Shown piece by piece: positions 43,779-61,060 of a DNA stretch of 61,060 nucleotides. Source of the DNA: a virus (Duplodnaviria > Caudoviricetes); the IMG/VR virus record IMGVR_UViG_3300032257_000012, positions 1-61,060 of that record, one strand, 5' to 3'. The position numbers were made by a program, and so were the translations under genes. The notes under the pieces are model-generated. The model saw only the letters and a list, made by a program, of their open reading frames with translations, was not told the origin of the DNA and did no database searches. How positions within the stretch are numbered: position 1 is the stretch's first letter; each line of letters begins with the position of its first letter.

Positions 43779-45281
43779 CTACTTAAACAAATTTTTCTTC
43801 TTAATACTCGTCGGTGAAACCGTAAAAACTTGTGAATCTTCCCGAATATACTTCAAAAACTGCGACAACGCGTCGATTGGGTCCCACAATGGGGGGGCAG
43901 GGAAGTGAGCTAGGCACTTTGTGAACATCTCCATCCAAGGAAATCGGTCAAAATCCTCTTCTGGGATCGTTAAAAACCCCCTTTCTAAGAGGTTTGTCTG
44001 ATTATCCATACGAATTATCTTTGGTTCTCTGGGTATCATACCCACCACAGGGAGGTTTGTGTTCTCAATCAGGTCTTGTAGGAGGGATGTGCCGCTTGAT
44101 TTGTCCTCAATAATGATCGTGGATGGGGCGTAATGTTCGTCCATATTGATTATTTTGGCCTGTAAGTCGGGGTATTTGACCCTTTCCAGCCACATATCCA
44201 CCAATCTCCACTGTAGTATGCGCGTATCGTCCGTATATGGTCTCTGAAACACCAATCCAACACTAGGATCGTGTATTTCAGAGTCTTTTTGCGCTGTATC
44301 GAACGATATTATCGTTTCTGAGACATCTTCGGGGGCTAAGTGCTCTTTCCATCTCGGGAACCAGTCCAAAACGATCCGCCCACCGCCTTTTGGTGATGGG
44401 TTTTGCTGCATTTGTCCCTCGAACCCGTAAGATCCAAGTCGATGGCGCATTGCTTGCACCTCTTCTGGTCCGTTTCTTGCTGGATTTAGTAGGTGGCCCT
44501 CTTCGCGCACCCATTCTTTGCCAGAGATGGGGAATATGAATATCGTCTTCTTCTCGGCGACCCGTGGAATCTTCAAAAGCTCCCACGAAGCATGGTCCTT
44601 GCTGTCTAAAATATGCCCGCAGGGGTCATTTACGGCCAACCTTTGCATTACCAGCACTTCGTGTGCGGTTTTTGGGTTGTTTTTGCGTGTAGAGTACGTC
44701 TCATCAAGCCATATGTTGGCGGCTTCACGGGCCGCTCCCGACGCCGCCTGCGTTGGATCCACCAAATCATCAGATATTAGTACCTGGCCTCCCATCCCGA
44801 TGCACGACGCCCCGACGCTCGTCGCAATGCGATGGCCACGCCTGGTTGTGGCGAATTGCGCTTTTTCGTTCTGTGCTTGCGCAATTATTGTCTCCGGGAA
44901 GAGTTGACGATACCACTCCGCCTCGATCACTGAGCGTGTGTCTACGCTATGTCCCGTACTCAACTTCGCGGCGTAGCTCGCGGCGAGAATCTGCTCACTC
45001 GGATTATGCCCCAGCAAAAATGCTGGCCACGCCACCGTCACAGATATCGATTTCAACTCACGGGGGGGAATATTTACGATGAGATTCTTAATTTGGTTGT
45101 TCGATACCGCTACAAGGTATTCCGCAATCAAATCAATATGCGGGCTGTGCATATATTCGGTGCCAGGATTGAGATGTTGGAACACCCGTCGTATGAAAGC
45201 GCCTAAGTCGTCACGCGTTCTGCGGCGATCTAACAAAGCTTGGGCGGCCCGACGACGGATTATATCACTCATCTGCGTCAT
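43779..45281 (-). CDS. terL: terminase large subunit
   Basis: NIPPRELKS Walker A, ISDDLVDP Walker B, VMQRL, nuclease SFDTA and IEDKSSG, DPIDALSQ. Confidence 0.93.
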   Translation of the reverse strand: MTQMSDIIRRRAAQALLDRRRTRDDLGAFIRRVFQHLNPGTEYMHSPHIDLIAEYLVAVSNNQIKNLIVNIPPRELKSISVTVAWPAFLLGHNPSEQILAASYAAKLSTGHSVDTRSVIEAEWYRQLFPETIIAQAQNEKAQFATTRRGHRIATSVGASCIGMGGQVLISDDLVDPTQAASGAAREAANIWLDETYSTRKNNPKTAHEVLVMQRLAVNDPCGHILDSKDHASWELLKIPRVAEKKTIFIFPISGKEWVREEGHLLNPARNGPEEVQAMRHRLGSYGFEGQMQQNPSPKGGGRIVLDWFPRWKEHLAPEDVSETIISFDTAQKDSEIHDPSVGLVFQRPYTDDTRILQWRLVDMWLERVKYPDLQAKIINMDEHYAPSTIIIEDKSSGTSLLQDLIENTNLPVVGMIPREPKIIRMDNQTNLLERGFLTIPEEDFDRFPWMEMFTKCLAHFPAPPLWDPIDALSQFLKYIREDSQVFTVSPTSIKKKNLFK

Positions 45282-45711
45282 CCATCAAAGCGCTGTAGTT
45301 GGCTACGTCTTCTTCGGATGCTGTGCCGTGTGCTATCTTCTCTAGTAGGTCGTCTGGGATAGTTGTCAACGATCCGCCGTCCCAGGTGGGGGGCGCTGCA
45401 ATCGCCTTCTTATCTGGTAGCACTTTATTCAAGCACCTAAACAGTAGCTCGGAACGGAGTTTCAACACACCGACTTGGGTCTGAGCTGTGGCGGTGAGCG
45501 TTATCGCGGCGTCTAAATTATCTACGTCCTTCAAATCCTCATATATAGTAGTTAGCTCTTGATCTATGCCGACCACTTCATCTATGATAGCGGTCGGAGA
45601 TAGGCCGCTGGCTGGGTCGGCGTCGCTGCCTCGGAGGTGCTCTTGTTGTGTGGGGGTAGCTCGCGAGGGTTGAACTCGGCCCCGGCGAACGATTAGTGTT
45701 TGTTTTGACAT
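45265..45711 (-). CDS. probable terminase small subunit
   Basis: Overlaps the terL start; helical; LNKVLPDKKA. Confidence 0.6.
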   Translation of the reverse strand: MSKQTLIVRRGRVQPSRATPTQQEHLRGSDADPASGLSPTAIIDEVVGIDQELTTIYEDLKDVDNLDAAITLTATAQTQVGVLKLRSELLFRCLNKVLPDKKAIAAPPTWDGGSLTTIPDDLLEKIAHGTASEEDVANYSALMDDADE

Positions 45712-47491: not shown

Positions 47492-47764
47492 TTATAACAA
47501 TGAAGCTGTAACAATAACTATGCCAACAATAACCATGCCAACAATCAATATCCGCTTGACCTCCTCGCGGTCGTCGTGGCGTCGTCCCCACTTGCCGGCC
47601 CACTTAACTTCTCCGGTGCGACGATCCACGATCCCTAGCTCATCGTAGCGCGGTTTTTCCTCCATTTTTGGTGGAGCATATCGACCCATCTTTTCAAGGG
47701 TGACAGGGGCTTTACGTTCGCCCCGCGCCATGGCAATTGCGACTGCATTTTTTAAGTGGATCAT
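47492..47764 (-). CDS. small protein with C-terminal TM
   Basis: ORF track; coupled to the ardA stop. Confidence 0.55.
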   Translation of the reverse strand: MIHLKNAVAIAMARGERKAPVTLEKMGRYAPPKMEEKPRYDELGIVDRRTGEVKWAGKWGRRHDDREEVKRILIVGMVIVGIVIVTASLL

Positions 47765-48234
47765 CAGACGGCTCCCATGTAGTATGTAGCCCCCTCGAAC
47801 TCAAATTCCGCGTAGTCACCACCTAAGATCAAGTCTCGACCGAACGCCTCGTAGTCGATGTATCGCGCCACATATTCCGGCAAATCTCTCACATCGTCCT
47901 CCACACGCTCTCTAGCTAGCTCTTCTATATCTCCGGCGTACATGAGCACGTCCCTCGCGCAGTCCACCAAATCATCCTGAACGCAATACCCGCACTGCTC
48001 GACCAGATAGTGAGCTATCACTCTGTCATCCCCCTCAAGGTCGTTCAGTTGTTCAAGCCAGATACCTATCGTCGAACCGTCGATCGCTAAGAGGTCAAAC
48101 AGCTCAGAATTGTCGCTGGCTAGGCATTCGACTTTGTGGTCGTTGTTGCCGCCTTGCTCCAAAAATCCGTCAATGTCGTCGAATTCAAAAGTCGTGCCAG
48201 TTTTTAAATTAGTTGCTCTATAGTCAAAACTCAT
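47764..48234 (-). CDS. ardA: ArdA-family antirestriction (DNA mimic) protein
   Basis: Highly acidic; C-terminal LPEYVARYIDYEAFGRDL signature. Confidence 0.85.
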   Translation of the reverse strand: MSFDYRATNLKTGTTFEFDDIDGFLEQGGNNDHKVECLASDNSELFDLLAIDGSTIGIWLEQLNDLEGDDRVIAHYLVEQCGYCVQDDLVDCARDVLMYAGDIEELARERVEDDVRDLPEYVARYIDYEAFGRDLILGGDYAEFEFEGATYYMGAV

Positions 48235-48411
48235 TTTAGTTCACCTCTATATGGAATATCCAAAAAATTGTCACGACGGTGGTATGTATTATACAGCTCA
48301 CCGCCTGTGGCGCGGCCATATACTCTAGTCCTTTACCGGGCTCCACCAGCAACACAACTGCGGTCAAGTAGGCCGTCGTGAGCGCCGTGCTCGTCGCTAG
48401 CCCGACTAACT

Positions 48412-48549
48412 TCATTTGTTGACCACTTTAGTCGCGTGGTAAGCGGCGCTAGCGTCTGCCATGGCTGCATTGCCACCATCTACTAGCTGGGGCAGCACTG
48501 CGTATTGAAAGACCAAACCTAATGCGATGATGATGGCTAATTTTTTCAT
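48412..48549 (-). CDS. 45-aa membrane or secreted peptide
   Basis: MKKLAIIIALGLVFQYAVLPQL... behind a GAGGA RBS and a sigma28 promoter; below the ORF-track cutoff. Confidence 0.6.
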   Translation of the reverse strand: MKKLAIIIALGLVFQYAVLPQLVDGGNAAMADASAAYHATKVVNK

Positions 48550-48584
48550 TTTTAAATCCTCATGTTGGTTGCTGTATACTTAGT

Positions 48585-48611
48585 TTATCGGCGTCCCTGC
48601 CGGAACCTTTA
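48585..48611 (-). promoter_or_regulatory. sigma28 (FliA) consensus promoter 1
   Basis: Minus strand reads TAAA-ggttccggcagggac(15)-GCCGATAA. Confidence 0.85.
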
Positions 48612-48815
48612 GGGTTTATTTAAATTAAAGTTGAGATAGTGATTGCTTGTGTGTACGTCACTGGCGCACATAGGGCACGTGGGTCGTTGCCTTCTAGAAT
48701 CTCAACGAGCGTCGCTAGCGTCGCGTGCGTCGGTGGGGAGGGTACTATTGATAGTGTGGCTGCGTGGGCTAGTATGTACATTTTAAATCCTCATGTTGGT
48801 TGCTGTATACTTAGT

Positions 48816-48842
48816 TTATCGGCCCCCCGGCGGGGACCTTTA
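48816..48842 (-). promoter_or_regulatory. sigma28 (FliA) consensus promoter 2
   Basis: Minus strand reads TAAA-ggtccccgccggggg(15)-GCCGATAA; precedes a 53-aa ORF starting at 48781. Confidence 0.85.
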
Positions 48843-48851
48843 GGGTTTATT

Positions 48852-49061
48852 TCAATATGCCGAAACTATTTTTTCGGCGGTTATGATGAGGGTCGAACCG
48901 TCGTCCATGATGTGGCAAACTTCGCCTGGTCTGTCCTGCGTGGAGTCCGCGTTGTGAGCGGCGCAGTCAAGCAGTTCAGTGAATGAGATATGACCTTGTT
49001 CGAAAGCGTACTCAACTAGCTCAGCGGTGGTCATATTTAAGAGTGCTTCGACTTCGATCAT
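48852..49061 (-). CDS. small acidic early protein
   Basis: GAGGA RBS; first gene after promoter 3. Confidence 0.6.
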   Translation of the reverse strand: MIEVEALLNMTTAELVEYAFEQGHISFTELLDCAAHNADSTQDRPGEVCHIMDDGSTLIITAEKIVSAY

Positions 49062-49096
49062 GGCTGTTTCCTCATAATGTTTCGTTGTTACTTAAT

Positions 49097-49123
49097 ATAT
49101 CGGCGGTAAAACTCATACCTTTA
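49097..49123 (-). promoter_or_regulatory. sigma28 (FliA) consensus promoter 3
   Basis: Minus strand reads TAAA-ggtatgagttttacc(15)-GCCGATAT. Confidence 0.8.
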
Positions 49124-49279
49124 GTCTTTTTTTCAAAAATATTCACTTAATTTCCGGTGGGCATAATGGGGACAATTAATGTAAAGCGTCGTCCCGGCGC
49201 TAGCGACGCCCCCGTAGCTAGCATAAGGGTCTGGGTTTTCCGCGCTATATGCTCTTTAAAAATTAAATGAAAAAAGTCC

Positions 49280-49306
49280 TCAAGGTATTTTTTGAGAGGC
49301 CGATAT
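49280..49306 (+). promoter_or_regulatory. sigma28-type promoter 4, pointing into the repeat array
   Basis: TCAA-N15-GCCGATAT. Confidence 0.7.
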
Positions 49307-49359
49307 ATTAAGTACCGGGGGGATAGGAGCCTGGCCCCTGGGCGACATTCCAGTGAGAC

Positions 49360-49678
49360 TGCAAGATCTAGGCCAGGGCAGATGGCACGGTGTTTGCTAT
49401 TGCAAGATCTAGGCCATCGGGTTTGGCACTGATCTTGCTTATGCACTAAGTGTGCCATCGGGTTTGGCACTGATCTTGCTTATGCACTAAGTGTGCCATC
49501 GGGTCTGGCACTGATCTTGCTTATGCACTAAGTGTGCCATCGGGTTTGGCACTGATCTTGCTTATGCACTAAGTGTGCCATCGGGTTTGGCACTGATCTT
49601 GCTTATGCACTAAGTGTGCCATCGGGTTTGGCACTGATCTTGCTTATGCACTAAGTGTGCCATCGGGTTTGGCACTGA
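49360..49678. repeat. 41-bp tandem array; each unit carries two convergent sigma54 -24/-12 consensus sites
   Basis: Unit catcgggtttggcactgatcttgcttatgcactaagtgtgc. TGGCAC-N5-TTGCT on + at 49383+41n (n=0-6); TGGC-N8-TGCA on - at 49360+41n (n=0-7). Confidence 0.92.
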
Positions 49679-49794
49679 GCGTCTTCACTGGCTGGCCCAC
49701 TGAGCTCCTTCACTGGCTGGCCCACTGAGCTCCTTCACTGGCTGGCCCACTGAGCTCCTCCACTGGCTGGCCCACTGAGTGTCTCCACTGGCTG
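49673..49794. repeat. 25-bp tandem array, about 5 units
   Basis: cactgagctccttcactggctggcc or variants at 49673, 49698, 49723, 49748 and 49773. Confidence 0.92.
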
Positions 49795-50629
49795 CTAGGA
49801 TCAGCATACAAAAAAATTGGAGACTTTCCTAGCATGGATTTTATTGAAAGTCAACCCCCTACATATCTGCGCGCCCGTGTCAATAGTATAAAAATTTTTG
49901 GAGGGGTTGTAATTTTGTCTCAAATGTGCAACGTGAGCGTCGTGAGCGTCGTTACTACAAGAGACATGGTACCTTTTGGTGGTTTTTCTGAAATTTCGCT
50001 GTATATCTATGAAGATATTTTATCGTCCTAATCCTTTCCACTCCCAAAATAGCAATGTTGGGATAGGCAGGCGCCAAGGTACCCACCCCCTATGGTATCG
50101 CTCTCGCTTCGTGTGAGAGCCGTCAGGAGGATTTCGGGTTCTCGCACATATCCGTGGCCAGGTTTGACAGGGATCGTCGCTTGCGTCGGGCTCTCAGGCG
50201 CCCTCGTTTGATTTGGGGGGTAACTACAGCCGCTTTATCGCCGTTGGGATTGGGTTTGCGTCGTCTCTGAGTGTCCACGCTACTAGCGAGCGATCAGGCT
50301 ATCAGTCGTAGGGCTTAAAATGGGGAGATGGGGGGCATCTATACGGATCAGAGGGTTAGAGAGTTAGCTTTTCTTAATAACTCTTATATAAAAAGAAGTC
50401 AGGAAAAATAGAATAATAATATATAATATTATCTTAATAGATAGGATAGGAAAGTAATAATATGATTCATAAAAGGGGAAGTAAATTTTCTCGGCCCCGA
50501 CGCCCCGACGCGAGCGACGTAACCCATTGATTCATATAGAACGTATAGGACGGTAGGCTATCGTCCTTGAGCACAAAACATACAAAATCACAACGCCACA
50601 CAGAAGTCAACAATTATATCGCCTAATGT

Positions 50630-50725
50630 GTAGGACAGCTACGCCAGATTAGTATGACGTATACCTAGATATACAGAAGGTATACGTAAGGTATACGTCA
50701 TACTAATCTGGCGTAGCTGTCCTAC
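50630..50725. repeat. perfect 37-bp inverted repeat with a 22-bp loop
   Basis: gtaggacagctacgccagattagtatgacgtatacct (50630-50666) and its exact reverse complement (50689-50725). Confidence 0.95.
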
Positions 50726-50857
50726 CTAAAAACGACGTGAGCGACGTGCCGGCGCACGCAACGCCTCCAAAAATTAATTGTAAATAAAACAAATTAATCT
50801 ACAAAATACCCAAATATCCCACGTTTCAACGTCCATTTTAAAAATATATTTTTCATA

Positions 50858-50886
50858 TTGACACCACAACACAACAATGATATTGT
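50858..50886 (+). promoter_or_regulatory. sigma70 promoter of the rightward early operon
   Basis: TTGACA-N17-TATTGT with extended TG and an AT-rich upstream element. Confidence 0.75.
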
Positions 50887-50916
50887 ATTACATCACAACA
50901 ACAGAGGAATACTATC

Positions 50917-51372
50917 ATGATAGATCCATTCGCAATTGCGACGATCACGACGCGCACGACGCCAGCGACGATCCCCAAGCGTCCACGTCGGCCCGTCGCC
51001 TACCACATGACAATCCCAGAAGAGTTCGTCACCGAACATGAAGAGGTCGAGTATGTGTGGACTGCTTTGTTCCTGAAGTACGTAGGGTTCACAAATCCCT
51101 ATACCACATTGGCACCTTATAATTACGACCTAACAATCCTCCCCCATCCTGATGCCCCCCCATCCTCAAAGGGAAGAAGTGCGATGCGAGCGACGGACGC
51201 TATGGAGTTTATTTGCCAAGCACTCCCCAGTACGTACCGCAAAATACACGTCCTCATTGAGAAACTACCTCGGGAGCAGCAGCGCACCATGTTGGATGCC
51301 TATAAAATGTACTTACAATATGAAATAGATTACGCATCAAGCGAAATCTCACAGTTGGAGAAAAAACGATGA
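50917..51372 (+). CDS. early protein with a degenerate BRO-N-like segment
   Basis: EYVWTALFLKYVGFTNP; GAGGA RBS. Confidence 0.55.
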   Translation: MIDPFAIATITTRTTPATIPKRPRRPVAYHMTIPEEFVTEHEEVEYVWTALFLKYVGFTNPYTTLAPYNYDLTILPHPDAPPSSKGRSAMRATDAMEFICQALPSTYRKIHVLIEKLPREQQRTMLDAYKMYLQYEIDYASSEISQLEKKR

Positions 51373-60620: not shown

Positions 60621-61060
60621 ATTCCTAGTGCCCCATTCATATGAAGCACGCACAACTCTTCTTGCACTGCGGCCTCTGATGTTAAAATTCTGTCCGCACT
60701 AAACAGCTCAGTGACCGTCGTGCCTAAGTCATTAATTACTCTATGGAGAGTATCATCCGCTATGTGAGTTTGAATGTTAGCGTTCGCAGGTTCCTTAGTG
60801 GCCAACCTGGCTATGATCTCTGACGCACTAAACAGCTCAGTGACCGTCGTGCCTAAGTCATTAATTACTCTATGGAGAGTATCATCCGCTATGTGAGTTT
60901 GAATGTTAGCGTTCGCAGGTTCCTTAGTGGCCAACCTGGCTATGATCTCTGACGCACTAAACAGCTCAGTGACCGTCGTGCCTAAGTCATTAATTACTCT
61001 ATGGAGAGTATCATCCGCTATGTGAGTTTGAATGTTAGCGTTCGCAGGTTCCTTAGTGGC
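60617..61060 (-). CDS. C-terminal part of the 43-aa-repeat fibre protein
   Basis: Same 129-bp units at 60695, 60824 and 60953; frame continuous with 1-963 when 60953-61060 is overlapped on 1-108. Confidence 0.8.
   Translation of the reverse strand, partial: ATKEPANANIQTHIADDTLHRVINDLGTTVTELFSASEIIARLATKEPANANIQTHIADDTLHRVINDLGTTVTELFSASEIIARLATKEPANANIQTHIADDTLHRVINDLGTTVTELFSADRILTSEAAVQEELCVLHMNGALGI

Follow-up and report, generated by a model that had tools for sequence, protein, structure and literature searches.

Why a bacteriophage should carry, in non-coding DNA, a dense block of paired sequences resembling sigma-54 promoter elements is the question raised by positions 49360..49678 of the IMG/VR record IMGVR_UViG_3300032257_000012, a complete-looking, siphovirus-like virus record (Duplodnaviria; Caudoviricetes) of 61,060 bp, the whole of which was analysed and is termed the window herein. 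The block, to which no strand is assigned, is an array of 41-bp units formed by elements of the type TGGCAC-N5-TTGCW, which is the consensus of sigma-54 (RpoN), its extended form beyond these bases being used here as general background only. Judged from the sequence, the array may consist of tandemly amplified recognition elements of the host sigma-54 holoenzyme, candidate docking sites which would hold the enzyme without firing, and this answer is favoured tentatively, at somewhat less than an even chance.

The array comprises eight units, two diverged ones (49360 and 49401) followed by 5.8 near-identical ones (49442-49678), and Tandem Repeats Finder reports for 49413-49678 a period of 41, 6.5 copies and 99% matches. 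In every unit two -24/-12-type elements face each other across 2 bp, which places 15 elements within 319 bp, and the GG and GC 10 bp apart are kept in all 15. On the plus strand, a motif scan located seven exact TGGCAC-N5-TTGCT elements (49383, 49424, 49465, 49506, 49547, 49588 and 49629; span 49383..49644), which point rightward, away from the terminase operon; T precedes TGGCAC in these elements, and the spacer reads GGTGT in the first (49383), the only one with G directly after TGGCAC, and TGATC in the six amplified ones, where T follows. The eight minus-strand elements, which point leftward, span 49360..49662 and retain GG and GC in 8 of 8, consist of TGGCACACTTAGTGCA at 49442, 49483, 49524, 49565, 49606 and 49647, with one mismatch each in the first T of TTGC (GTGCA for TTGCA), and TGGCCTAGATCTTGCA at 49360 and 49401, with two mismatches each. 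An earlier note on this DNA had listed these 15 elements and the 2-bp separation of the convergent partners, and the scan of both strands reproduced all of its coordinates and sequences. Exact TGGCAC-N5-TTGCW occurs seven times in the whole window, for an expectation of 0.06, and not one of 100 shuffles contained as many; all seven matches fall in the array, which is the clustering that the same note had anticipated from a genome scan. The 41-bp unit is non-coding, with stops in every frame and a length that is not a multiple of 3, and no Rfam family explains the array itself. Three units folded as single-stranded DNA gave z = -5.4, a value that is expected of any palindromic repeat and was not used.

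Because six copies represent one amplification event, the near-identical units are not independent of each other. The diverged units are more informative about what was kept: unit A (49360-49400) is the same as the consensus unit at 19 of 22 motif positions against 4 of 19 others (Fisher one-sided p = 3e-5) and keeps 8 of 8 GG/GC core bases, while the right halves of units A and B are identical at 11 of 11 motif bases and at 2 of 14 others. The motif, not the surrounding sequence, was kept, and the selection on the motif that had been suggested from the diverged left unit is supported by these counts.

Arrays of this kind were sought elsewhere by a tandem search of IMG/VR contigs for two exact TGGCAC-N5-TTGCW elements on the same strand, 10-40 bp apart (L-numbers denote IMG/VR or relative loci and G-numbers whole records, as labelled in the analysis). 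Same-strand exact pairs were present in at least 120 contigs, with 69 nucleotide-level clusters among the matches listed, to which all counts of clusters, loci and distinct sites below likewise refer. The search for GG-N10-GC arrays with other spacers in other phages, proposed in the earlier note, was therefore positive on a large scale. With the same pattern at control spacings, N6 gave 8 contigs and N4 gave 2. Neighbouring sites share at most 50% of their non-motif bases in 87 of the 119 analysable N5 loci, and plain tandem copies account for 7 of these 119 against 8 of 8 N6 controls. Since the N6 controls and seven N5 loci are plain copies, the background of chance motifs is put at about 7-8 contigs, and the excess over the controls is specific to the sigma-54 (N5) spacing. 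As in this class, close elements of the window differ in their non-motif bases, unit A being the one that departs from units B and C. In four whole records with arrays, the exact sites number 9-12 per record, whereas the reversed pattern occurs there 0-1 times. Across 80 terminase relatives, sigma-54-like matches are at the chance level overall (24 in 905 kb), except in the clade of L032, L033 and L051. An estimate of intergenic location based on open reading frames (ORFs), which gave 159 of 421 sites in 19% of the sequence, was too rough and was not used.

The base preferences of the class were compared with those of bacterial sigma-54 sites. In 381 distinct sites from the matches listed, the base before TGGCAC is T in.63 and C in.20 (T or C in 83%), and the first spacer base is G in.68, A in.29 and C or T together in.02. 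A mismatch set of 151 distinct one-mismatch elements lying at most 120 bp from an exact site, drawn from the same matches, contains 104 with TGGCAT, 10 with a change of C4 and 14 with a change of the first T of TTGC, while G2, T13 and G14 are changed in none. In the part of a Salmonella table from chromatin immunoprecipitation on microarrays (ChIP-chip) considered here, G or A stands at the first spacer base in 29 of the 29 intergenic sites shown and TGGCAT alternates with TGGCAC, and a passage of the same source speaks of 'conserved GG and TGC' for sigma-54 sites (PMC3844500). Judged from the sites alone, the mismatch tolerance of the class fits this wording, and exact TGGCAC-N5-TTGCW, G or A after the -24 element, and the tolerance of TGGCAT and of a changed first T are common to the class and to bacterial -24/-12 promoters, as far as the Salmonella sites shown represent them (PMC3844500). 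The commonest same-strand spacing between sites in the class is 26 bp, with 23 cases among the matches listed. As a separate observation, the 5-bp spacer reads GANTC in 69 of 634 distinct exact sites (loci L178-L409, among the matches listed), and the window spacers contain GATC. GANTC is the target of the CcrM methyltransferase of Alphaproteobacteria, and methylation-sensitive binding at these spacers is conceivable.

Face-to-face partners recur as well. A pair search of IMG/VR contigs for an exact element, 0-6 bp and an inverted exact element returned at least 120 contigs, with 49 clusters among the matches listed, in which the gap is 2 bp in 19 clusters, 3 bp in 18, 4 bp in 11, 5 bp in 5, 1 bp in 3, 6 bp in 2 and 0 bp in none; the 2-bp gap of the window is the modal gap of the class. 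Two loci carry window-like arrays with other spacers, namely L280, with four pairs at a 42-51-bp period and a 2-bp gap, and L267, with three pairs at a 43-bp period and a 1-bp gap. Neither 5 named-record genomes nor 401 genomes of one class yielded the exact face-to-face pair, a comparison that has little power given how thinly such pairs are spread in viral contigs.

The clusters also occupy a constant place. The window array lies 4.08 kb upstream of the terminase start, with the ArdA and Rha genes between, and a terminase gene linked to that of the window by BLAST is present at 57 of the 120 tandem loci listed, where the cluster is upstream in 57 of 57 at distances of 0.8-5.9 kb (median about 1.3 kb). 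The pair search contributed 102 further loci, 45 of them with a related terminase and the pair upstream in 45 of 45, so that both searches together place the elements upstream in 102 of 102 loci with a related terminase, over a range of 0.7-7.6 kb, among the matches listed. Where at least 3 kb are available on both sides, 28 of 56 loci show the related terminase family. The follow-up of the other 28 covered 10 proteins from 7 loci, of which three are terminases, each downstream of its cluster: phrog_38 (L238), which is the window's own family and had been missed by the BLAST threshold, phrog_2/3717 (L179) and phrog_9 (L359). Three more are head-module proteins of L318 and L338, two loci whose clusters lie among the head genes. 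At the 57 loci, at least 20 families are represented by the gene that directly precedes the terminase. Among the matches listed, 107 exact sites point away from the terminase and 76 towards it, and the perfect elements of the window share the commoner orientation. At L195 and L267, a sigma-70-like promoter after the array leads into the terminase operon.

On this pattern of sites, host sigma-54, free or as part of the holoenzyme, is the most likely binder, since a phage-specific binder would not be expected to keep one motif across many unrelated backgrounds; to our knowledge, no other protein reads GG-N10-GC with this tolerance spectrum. As far as we know, no bacterial sigma factor other than sigma-54 forms a holoenzyme that remains on DNA indefinitely while staying transcriptionally silent. 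Among the window proteins, neither the sigma-54 DNA-binding domain PF04552 nor the sigma-54 activator domain PF00158 was found, the latter in agreement with the earlier note, which had recognised no enhancer-binding protein; PF00158 is likewise absent from 5 terminase relatives, and both domains are absent from 5 array-bearing records. Next to the window array, neither a repeated palindrome of the L280 kind nor a recognisable upstream activator site was found. In the proposed mechanism, polymerase or free sigma-54 docked on one element would cover the start site of the partner element, and with no phage-encoded activator ATPase the complexes would stay closed and silent, and the block would thereby park host sigma-54 or its holoenzyme on the DNA of the phage. 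This could have two consequences, of which the first is a decoy effect, whereby sigma-54 would be withdrawn from host regulons as phage DNA copies accumulate, and the second is that the divergent control region beside the terminase operon would acquire a landmark or barrier covered with protein. Silent docking is favoured because the start sites lie inside the partner elements, the rightward gene is not at promoter distance and an activator is absent. The decoy effect is favoured by the multiplicity of the elements, by the dense 26-bp packing in the class and by the recent amplification in the window; a local effect, or promoters, by the constant place beside the terminase operon and the one-way orientation in some phages. 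We infer sigma-54 as the binder, rpoN in the host, complexes that would not fire and a benefit to the phage. The broader proposition, that many phage lineages carry sigma-54 polymerase traps beside the terminase operon, often face to face so that bound enzyme never fires, and that these serve host-regulon shutdown or a local landmark or barrier, is possible and on balance unlikely.

Several points weigh against silent docking. Six of the eight units being 99% identical, recent slippage could have given the copy number without selection, and this copy number itself rests on one assembly, for the contigs of three public runs (X1, X2 and X3) contain both flanks and the unit while none of them bridges the array; a 71-nt record of the unit has a depth of 255 versus 46-52 for the flanks in X1 and of 12.6 versus 7 in X3, which is not a copy number. 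The minus-strand elements are all imperfect, with one or two mismatches. The T directly after TGGCAC in the six amplified plus-strand elements is found in about 1% of the class and in 0 of the 29 Salmonella intergenic sites shown (PMC3844500), and the free positions of the window elements score at the 20th-35th percentile of the class. The cluster counts are not phylogenetically independent. If the host were cyanobacterial or otherwise lacked rpoN, the sigma-54 reading would fail, and two named homologues of the BRO protein are cyanobacterial. A pure decoy needs no fixed place, yet the clusters among the matches listed are always upstream of the terminase operon, an argument weakened by the fact that the control region is the main non-coding space of such genomes; and the near one-way orientation of the sites in G007, G006 and G009 suggests a directional function such as promoters. 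Of the decoy interpretation given in the earlier note, the supported part is that the elements appear to be truly of the sigma-54 type and under selection on the motif, and the constant place and one-way orientation fit a cis role or promoters at least as well as titration.

The rival that survives best, one which is unlikely overall and still to be taken seriously, is that the elements are real sigma-54-dependent promoters fired by a host enhancer-binding protein or an unrecognised phage activator. The seven perfect plus-strand elements would then drive the rightward early or replication operon and the weaker minus-strand elements the leftward arm from ArdA to the terminase, with the multiplicity raising the rate of polymerase capture. 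A second, co-oriented style of array speaks for this: 11 of 12, 9 of 9 and 10 of 10 exact sites are on one strand in G007, G006 and G009, respectively, most of them concentrated within 2-4 kb, and at L210 a non-coding stretch of 1.1 kb, ahead of the first gene on the strand concerned, is filled by about 12 co-oriented elements. At L280, four copies of a palindrome are followed by one exact site, and a ribosome-binding site comes about 70 bp after that, which is the usual layout of an activator-dependent promoter. In L032 and L033, the nearest terminase relatives with sites, the first divergent early gene lies about 185 bp beyond one or two near-consensus elements that are directed towards it, with a sigma-70-like promoter following the elements. 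The window itself is less accommodating, for its partners face each other at 2 bp with each start site inside the other element, and its genome has no other sigma-54-type sites. The statement of the earlier note that no ORF follows the array is right in that the array lies in a 1.85-kb non-coding gap and needs qualification in that genes begin on either side, leftward about 290-300 bp from the array and rightward 1.24 kb from it, the rightward gene having its own sigma-70-like promoter. The PF00158 activator is missing from the window and 10 other records, although a host activator could still serve, and the 26-bp spacing commonest in the class is, judged from published footprints, probably too tight for holoenzymes side by side.

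Less probable again is that another protein binds sites which merely look like those of sigma-54, the candidates being the small terminase subunit (sites of cosB or pac type), a replication initiator (iterons) and a Rha or BRO regulator. With TGGCA and TTGCA, each element contains two nearly identical half-elements in direct orientation, spaced by one helical turn, which a tandem dimer could read, and the window does encode Rha, Rha-like and BRO DNA-binding proteins. CosB of lambda lies upstream of the terminase operon, the place held in the 102 of 102 loci above and also before the terminases of other PHROGs in L179 and L359, and, like an origin, the gap around the window array combines a 25-bp repeat with AT-rich DNA and a long palindrome. 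These parallels are countered by the variety of the surroundings, as the gene preceding the terminase falls into at least 20 unrelated families at 57 loci, outside the large clade no family of phage proteins goes along with the clusters, and the clusters of L318 and L338 lie within a head gene module. The mismatch spectrum is, moreover, asymmetric between the half-elements in the manner of sigma-54, with TGGCAT tolerated and GG and TGC fixed, and the arrangement of the elements is free (tandem at 26-60 bp, face to face or dispersed), yet their inner N5 is strict. In the window, the array is 3.6 kb from the candidate gene for the terminase small subunit, with the ArdA and Rha genes between, and no replication initiator was recognised among the ORFs neighbouring the array. 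A neutral minisatellite, whose unit held the consensus by chance and expanded by slippage, is very improbable, for although six units are 99% identical, chance plain copies do exist (8 contigs with N6, 2 with N4 and 7 of 119 N5 loci among the matches listed) and chance cases are expected over some 250,000 windows (at an estimated 4e-5 or so per 41-bp unit), unit A differs and still keeps the motif (right half 11 of 11 versus 2 of 14), a second element stands on the opposite strand at the modal gap of the class, and at least 49 clusters of an independent class agree with the array in position and architecture.

Set beside known systems, silent docking on the window array would combine familiar elements in a new arrangement and setting, which is what is new here, the elements themselves being known. 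From bacterial sigma-54 promoters the window departs in its 15 elements within 319 bp, their face-to-face position at 2 bp, the T after TGGCAC, and the lack of a gene at promoter distance and of an activator gene or site. Arrays that titrate a protein include datA for DnaA and the incA iterons of P1. Arrays of cosB or pac sites and origin iterons, too, are two-orientation repeats in non-coding DNA upstream of the terminase operon with AT-rich DNA and further repeats nearby, and the class differs from them in sharing one motif while the terminase-proximal genes belong to at least 20 families, and in having the mismatch spectrum of sigma-54. T7-like genomes carry at their leading end the early promoter cluster A1-A3 for host polymerase. 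Like the window array, this cluster crowds several strong polymerase sites into a non-coding control region, and the nearby ArdA parallels the first-expressed anti-restriction gene of T7; unlike the array, it is made of sigma-70 promoters that are active immediately and share one direction, into the genome. In the portions of the Escherichia coli and Salmonella chromatin immunoprecipitation studies at hand, silent or intragenic sigma-54 sites offer a proposed likeness, inactive holoenzyme bound away from ordinary promoters, whereas those sites are single and scattered in host genes and the phage arrays are dense, non-coding and conserved in place (PMC4591121, PMC3844500). Transcription-factor decoy arrays, as excerpts of two reports describe them (PMC3322331, PMC7826281), likewise consist of many tandem sites and could lower the pool of free protein, with a capacity that rises with the number of DNA copies. 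A literature search found neither a naturally occurring sigma-factor decoy nor any phage-borne one, and a full-text search, with supplements outside its reach, found no report of sigma-54 site arrays in phages.

A phage loaded with such sites could capture host polymerase or sigma-54 without any protein of its own. If the decoy effect is real, it would amount to a DNA-only device for host takeover or counter-defence, with shutdown of sigma-54-dependent stress, repair, defence and receptor regulons (Psp, Rtc, cas, flagella and pili); if the role is local, silent polymerase as a landmark or barrier would represent a novel means of regulating or marking the late and packaging region. In either form, the trap would be a new phage-host interaction through DNA sites alone. 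The class itself (at least 69 and at least 49 IMG/VR sequence clusters, N5-specific) is a lead for phage genomics and host prediction.

The 1.85-kb non-coding gap (49062..50916) in which the array lies is the largest of the genome and separates divergent gene blocks. Its left side is bordered by the leftward arm, with a 69-amino-acid ORF, small ORFs, ArdA and, farther on, the terminase and structural genes, and its right side by the rightward arm, with early genes of no assigned function and then, past the contig junction, replication genes. Adjoining the array, Tandem Repeats Finder reports a 25-bp tandem repeat at 49673..49794 (4.9 copies, consensus CACTGAGCTCCTTCACTGGCTGGCC), which has no GG-N10-GC or sigma-54-type element, contains every one of the genome's 4 GAGCTC sites and probably serves some other binder; other array-bearing loci likewise have unrelated repeats beside their sigma-54 elements, for example L280:640-900. 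An AT-rich stretch at about 50370-50470 lies 700 bp from the array. The rightward operon is preceded by a 99-bp near-perfect palindrome with arms of about 40 bp (50628-50726), 130 bp before the sigma-70-like promoter, and by this promoter itself, TTGACA-17-TATTGT with a TG extension (50858-50886), just ahead of the ORF at 50917. Candidate roles of the palindrome are origin element, terminator, processing site and resolution site, and Rfam returned for it only sub-threshold matches to microRNA families, which were taken as a spurious effect of hairpin shape. Between the array and the first leftward gene is an imperfect inverted repeat (49089..49314) with 47-nt arms that are 74% complementary and 132 nt apart. 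Hairpin promoters precede ardA in plasmid leading regions, and the layout of this inverted repeat upstream of the ArdA operon recalls them. The leftward operon (47492..49061, minus strand) contains the 69-amino-acid ORF, small ORFs, an ArdA-like protein (47764-48234), assigned through PF07275 ArdA (E 3.7e-8) and phrog_2059, and a 90-amino-acid ORF; the terminase large subunit (43779-45281, phrog_38), with a 148-amino-acid ORF before it (45265-45711), occupies 43779..45711, also on the minus strand.

Further repeats were noticed at other loci. G007:C1:16674-18802, G006:C1:23176-25146 and G009:C1:100523-104404 each hold 7-10 exact one-strand elements in largely non-coding DNA and resemble a bank of co-oriented promoters, though these records have no activator gene. 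The non-coding DNA beside the terminase operon in L032:6700-7100 and L033:230-560 (minus as displayed) is packed with the direct repeats GTGTTCCACGG and GTGTTTCACGG, which we take to resemble half-sites of the bacterial parS centromere, and paired CCCGACGAACGGTA repeats stand ahead of the sigma-70-like promoter there. With these repeats the region may contain a further type of array, bound by some DNA-binding protein of host or phage.

The window encodes a terminase large subunit, portal, major head protein, tape measure, DNA polymerase I, primase and helicase, together with a methyltransferase, the Rha, Rha-like and BRO DNA-binding proteins or regulators and the ArdA-like anti-restriction protein; tRNA genes were not found in it. 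Its closest cultured relatives are remote (terminase at most 33% identity, polymerase at most 38%) and are all phages of Proteobacteria, and the best uncultured terminase homologues reach at most 54% identity. A DNA search of the non-coding stretch 49062-49834 against cultured phages gave zero matches, as did the region of locus L195, and a 16-mer of the 41-bp unit gave only single scattered matches in 24 viral contigs, which indicates that near relatives are absent. No related loci were found by searching with single proteins (a 420-amino-acid protein and the terminase). The alignment of terminase homologues (identity at most 54%) led to 80 viral and 72 genomic loci with only structural genes in common with the window; named records among the terminase-related loci come from Planctomycetota, Alpha- and Gammaproteobacteria, Rickettsiales and others and do not resolve the host, for which the BRO-protein homologues are a mixed clue. 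The HIP1 palindrome is absent from the window, and several 6-bp palindromes are depleted in observed versus Markov-expected counts: GTCGAC (0 vs 16), CAGCTG (0 vs 9.5), CTGCAG (0 vs 5.2), GTGCAC (0 vs 4.2), CCGCGG (1 vs 10), GGATCC (2 vs 10.5) and CTCGAG (1 vs 7.5). This avoidance suggests a restriction-rich host, in keeping with the ArdA and methyltransferase genes of the phage, and names no host.

A 129-bp tandem repeat is found at both contig ends (1-837, 6.5 copies; 60695-61060, 2.8 copies; 97-100% matches), within a minus-strand ORF that encodes 43-amino-acid protein repeats. The 'direct terminal repeat' of the record may therefore be an assembly overlap inside this 129-bp repeat and not a physical terminal repeat, in which case the number of repeats in the gene is uncertain. 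The phage is present in the three public runs, which are labelled as microbial mat metagenome, and no RNA run appears among the sequencing runs listed. In run X2, contig depth over window positions 48700-50500 is about 15,000, compared with 46-52 and 7 in the other two runs, and the phage or close variants of it are blooming in that sample; a variant junction at 48781-48856 is common to all three runs.

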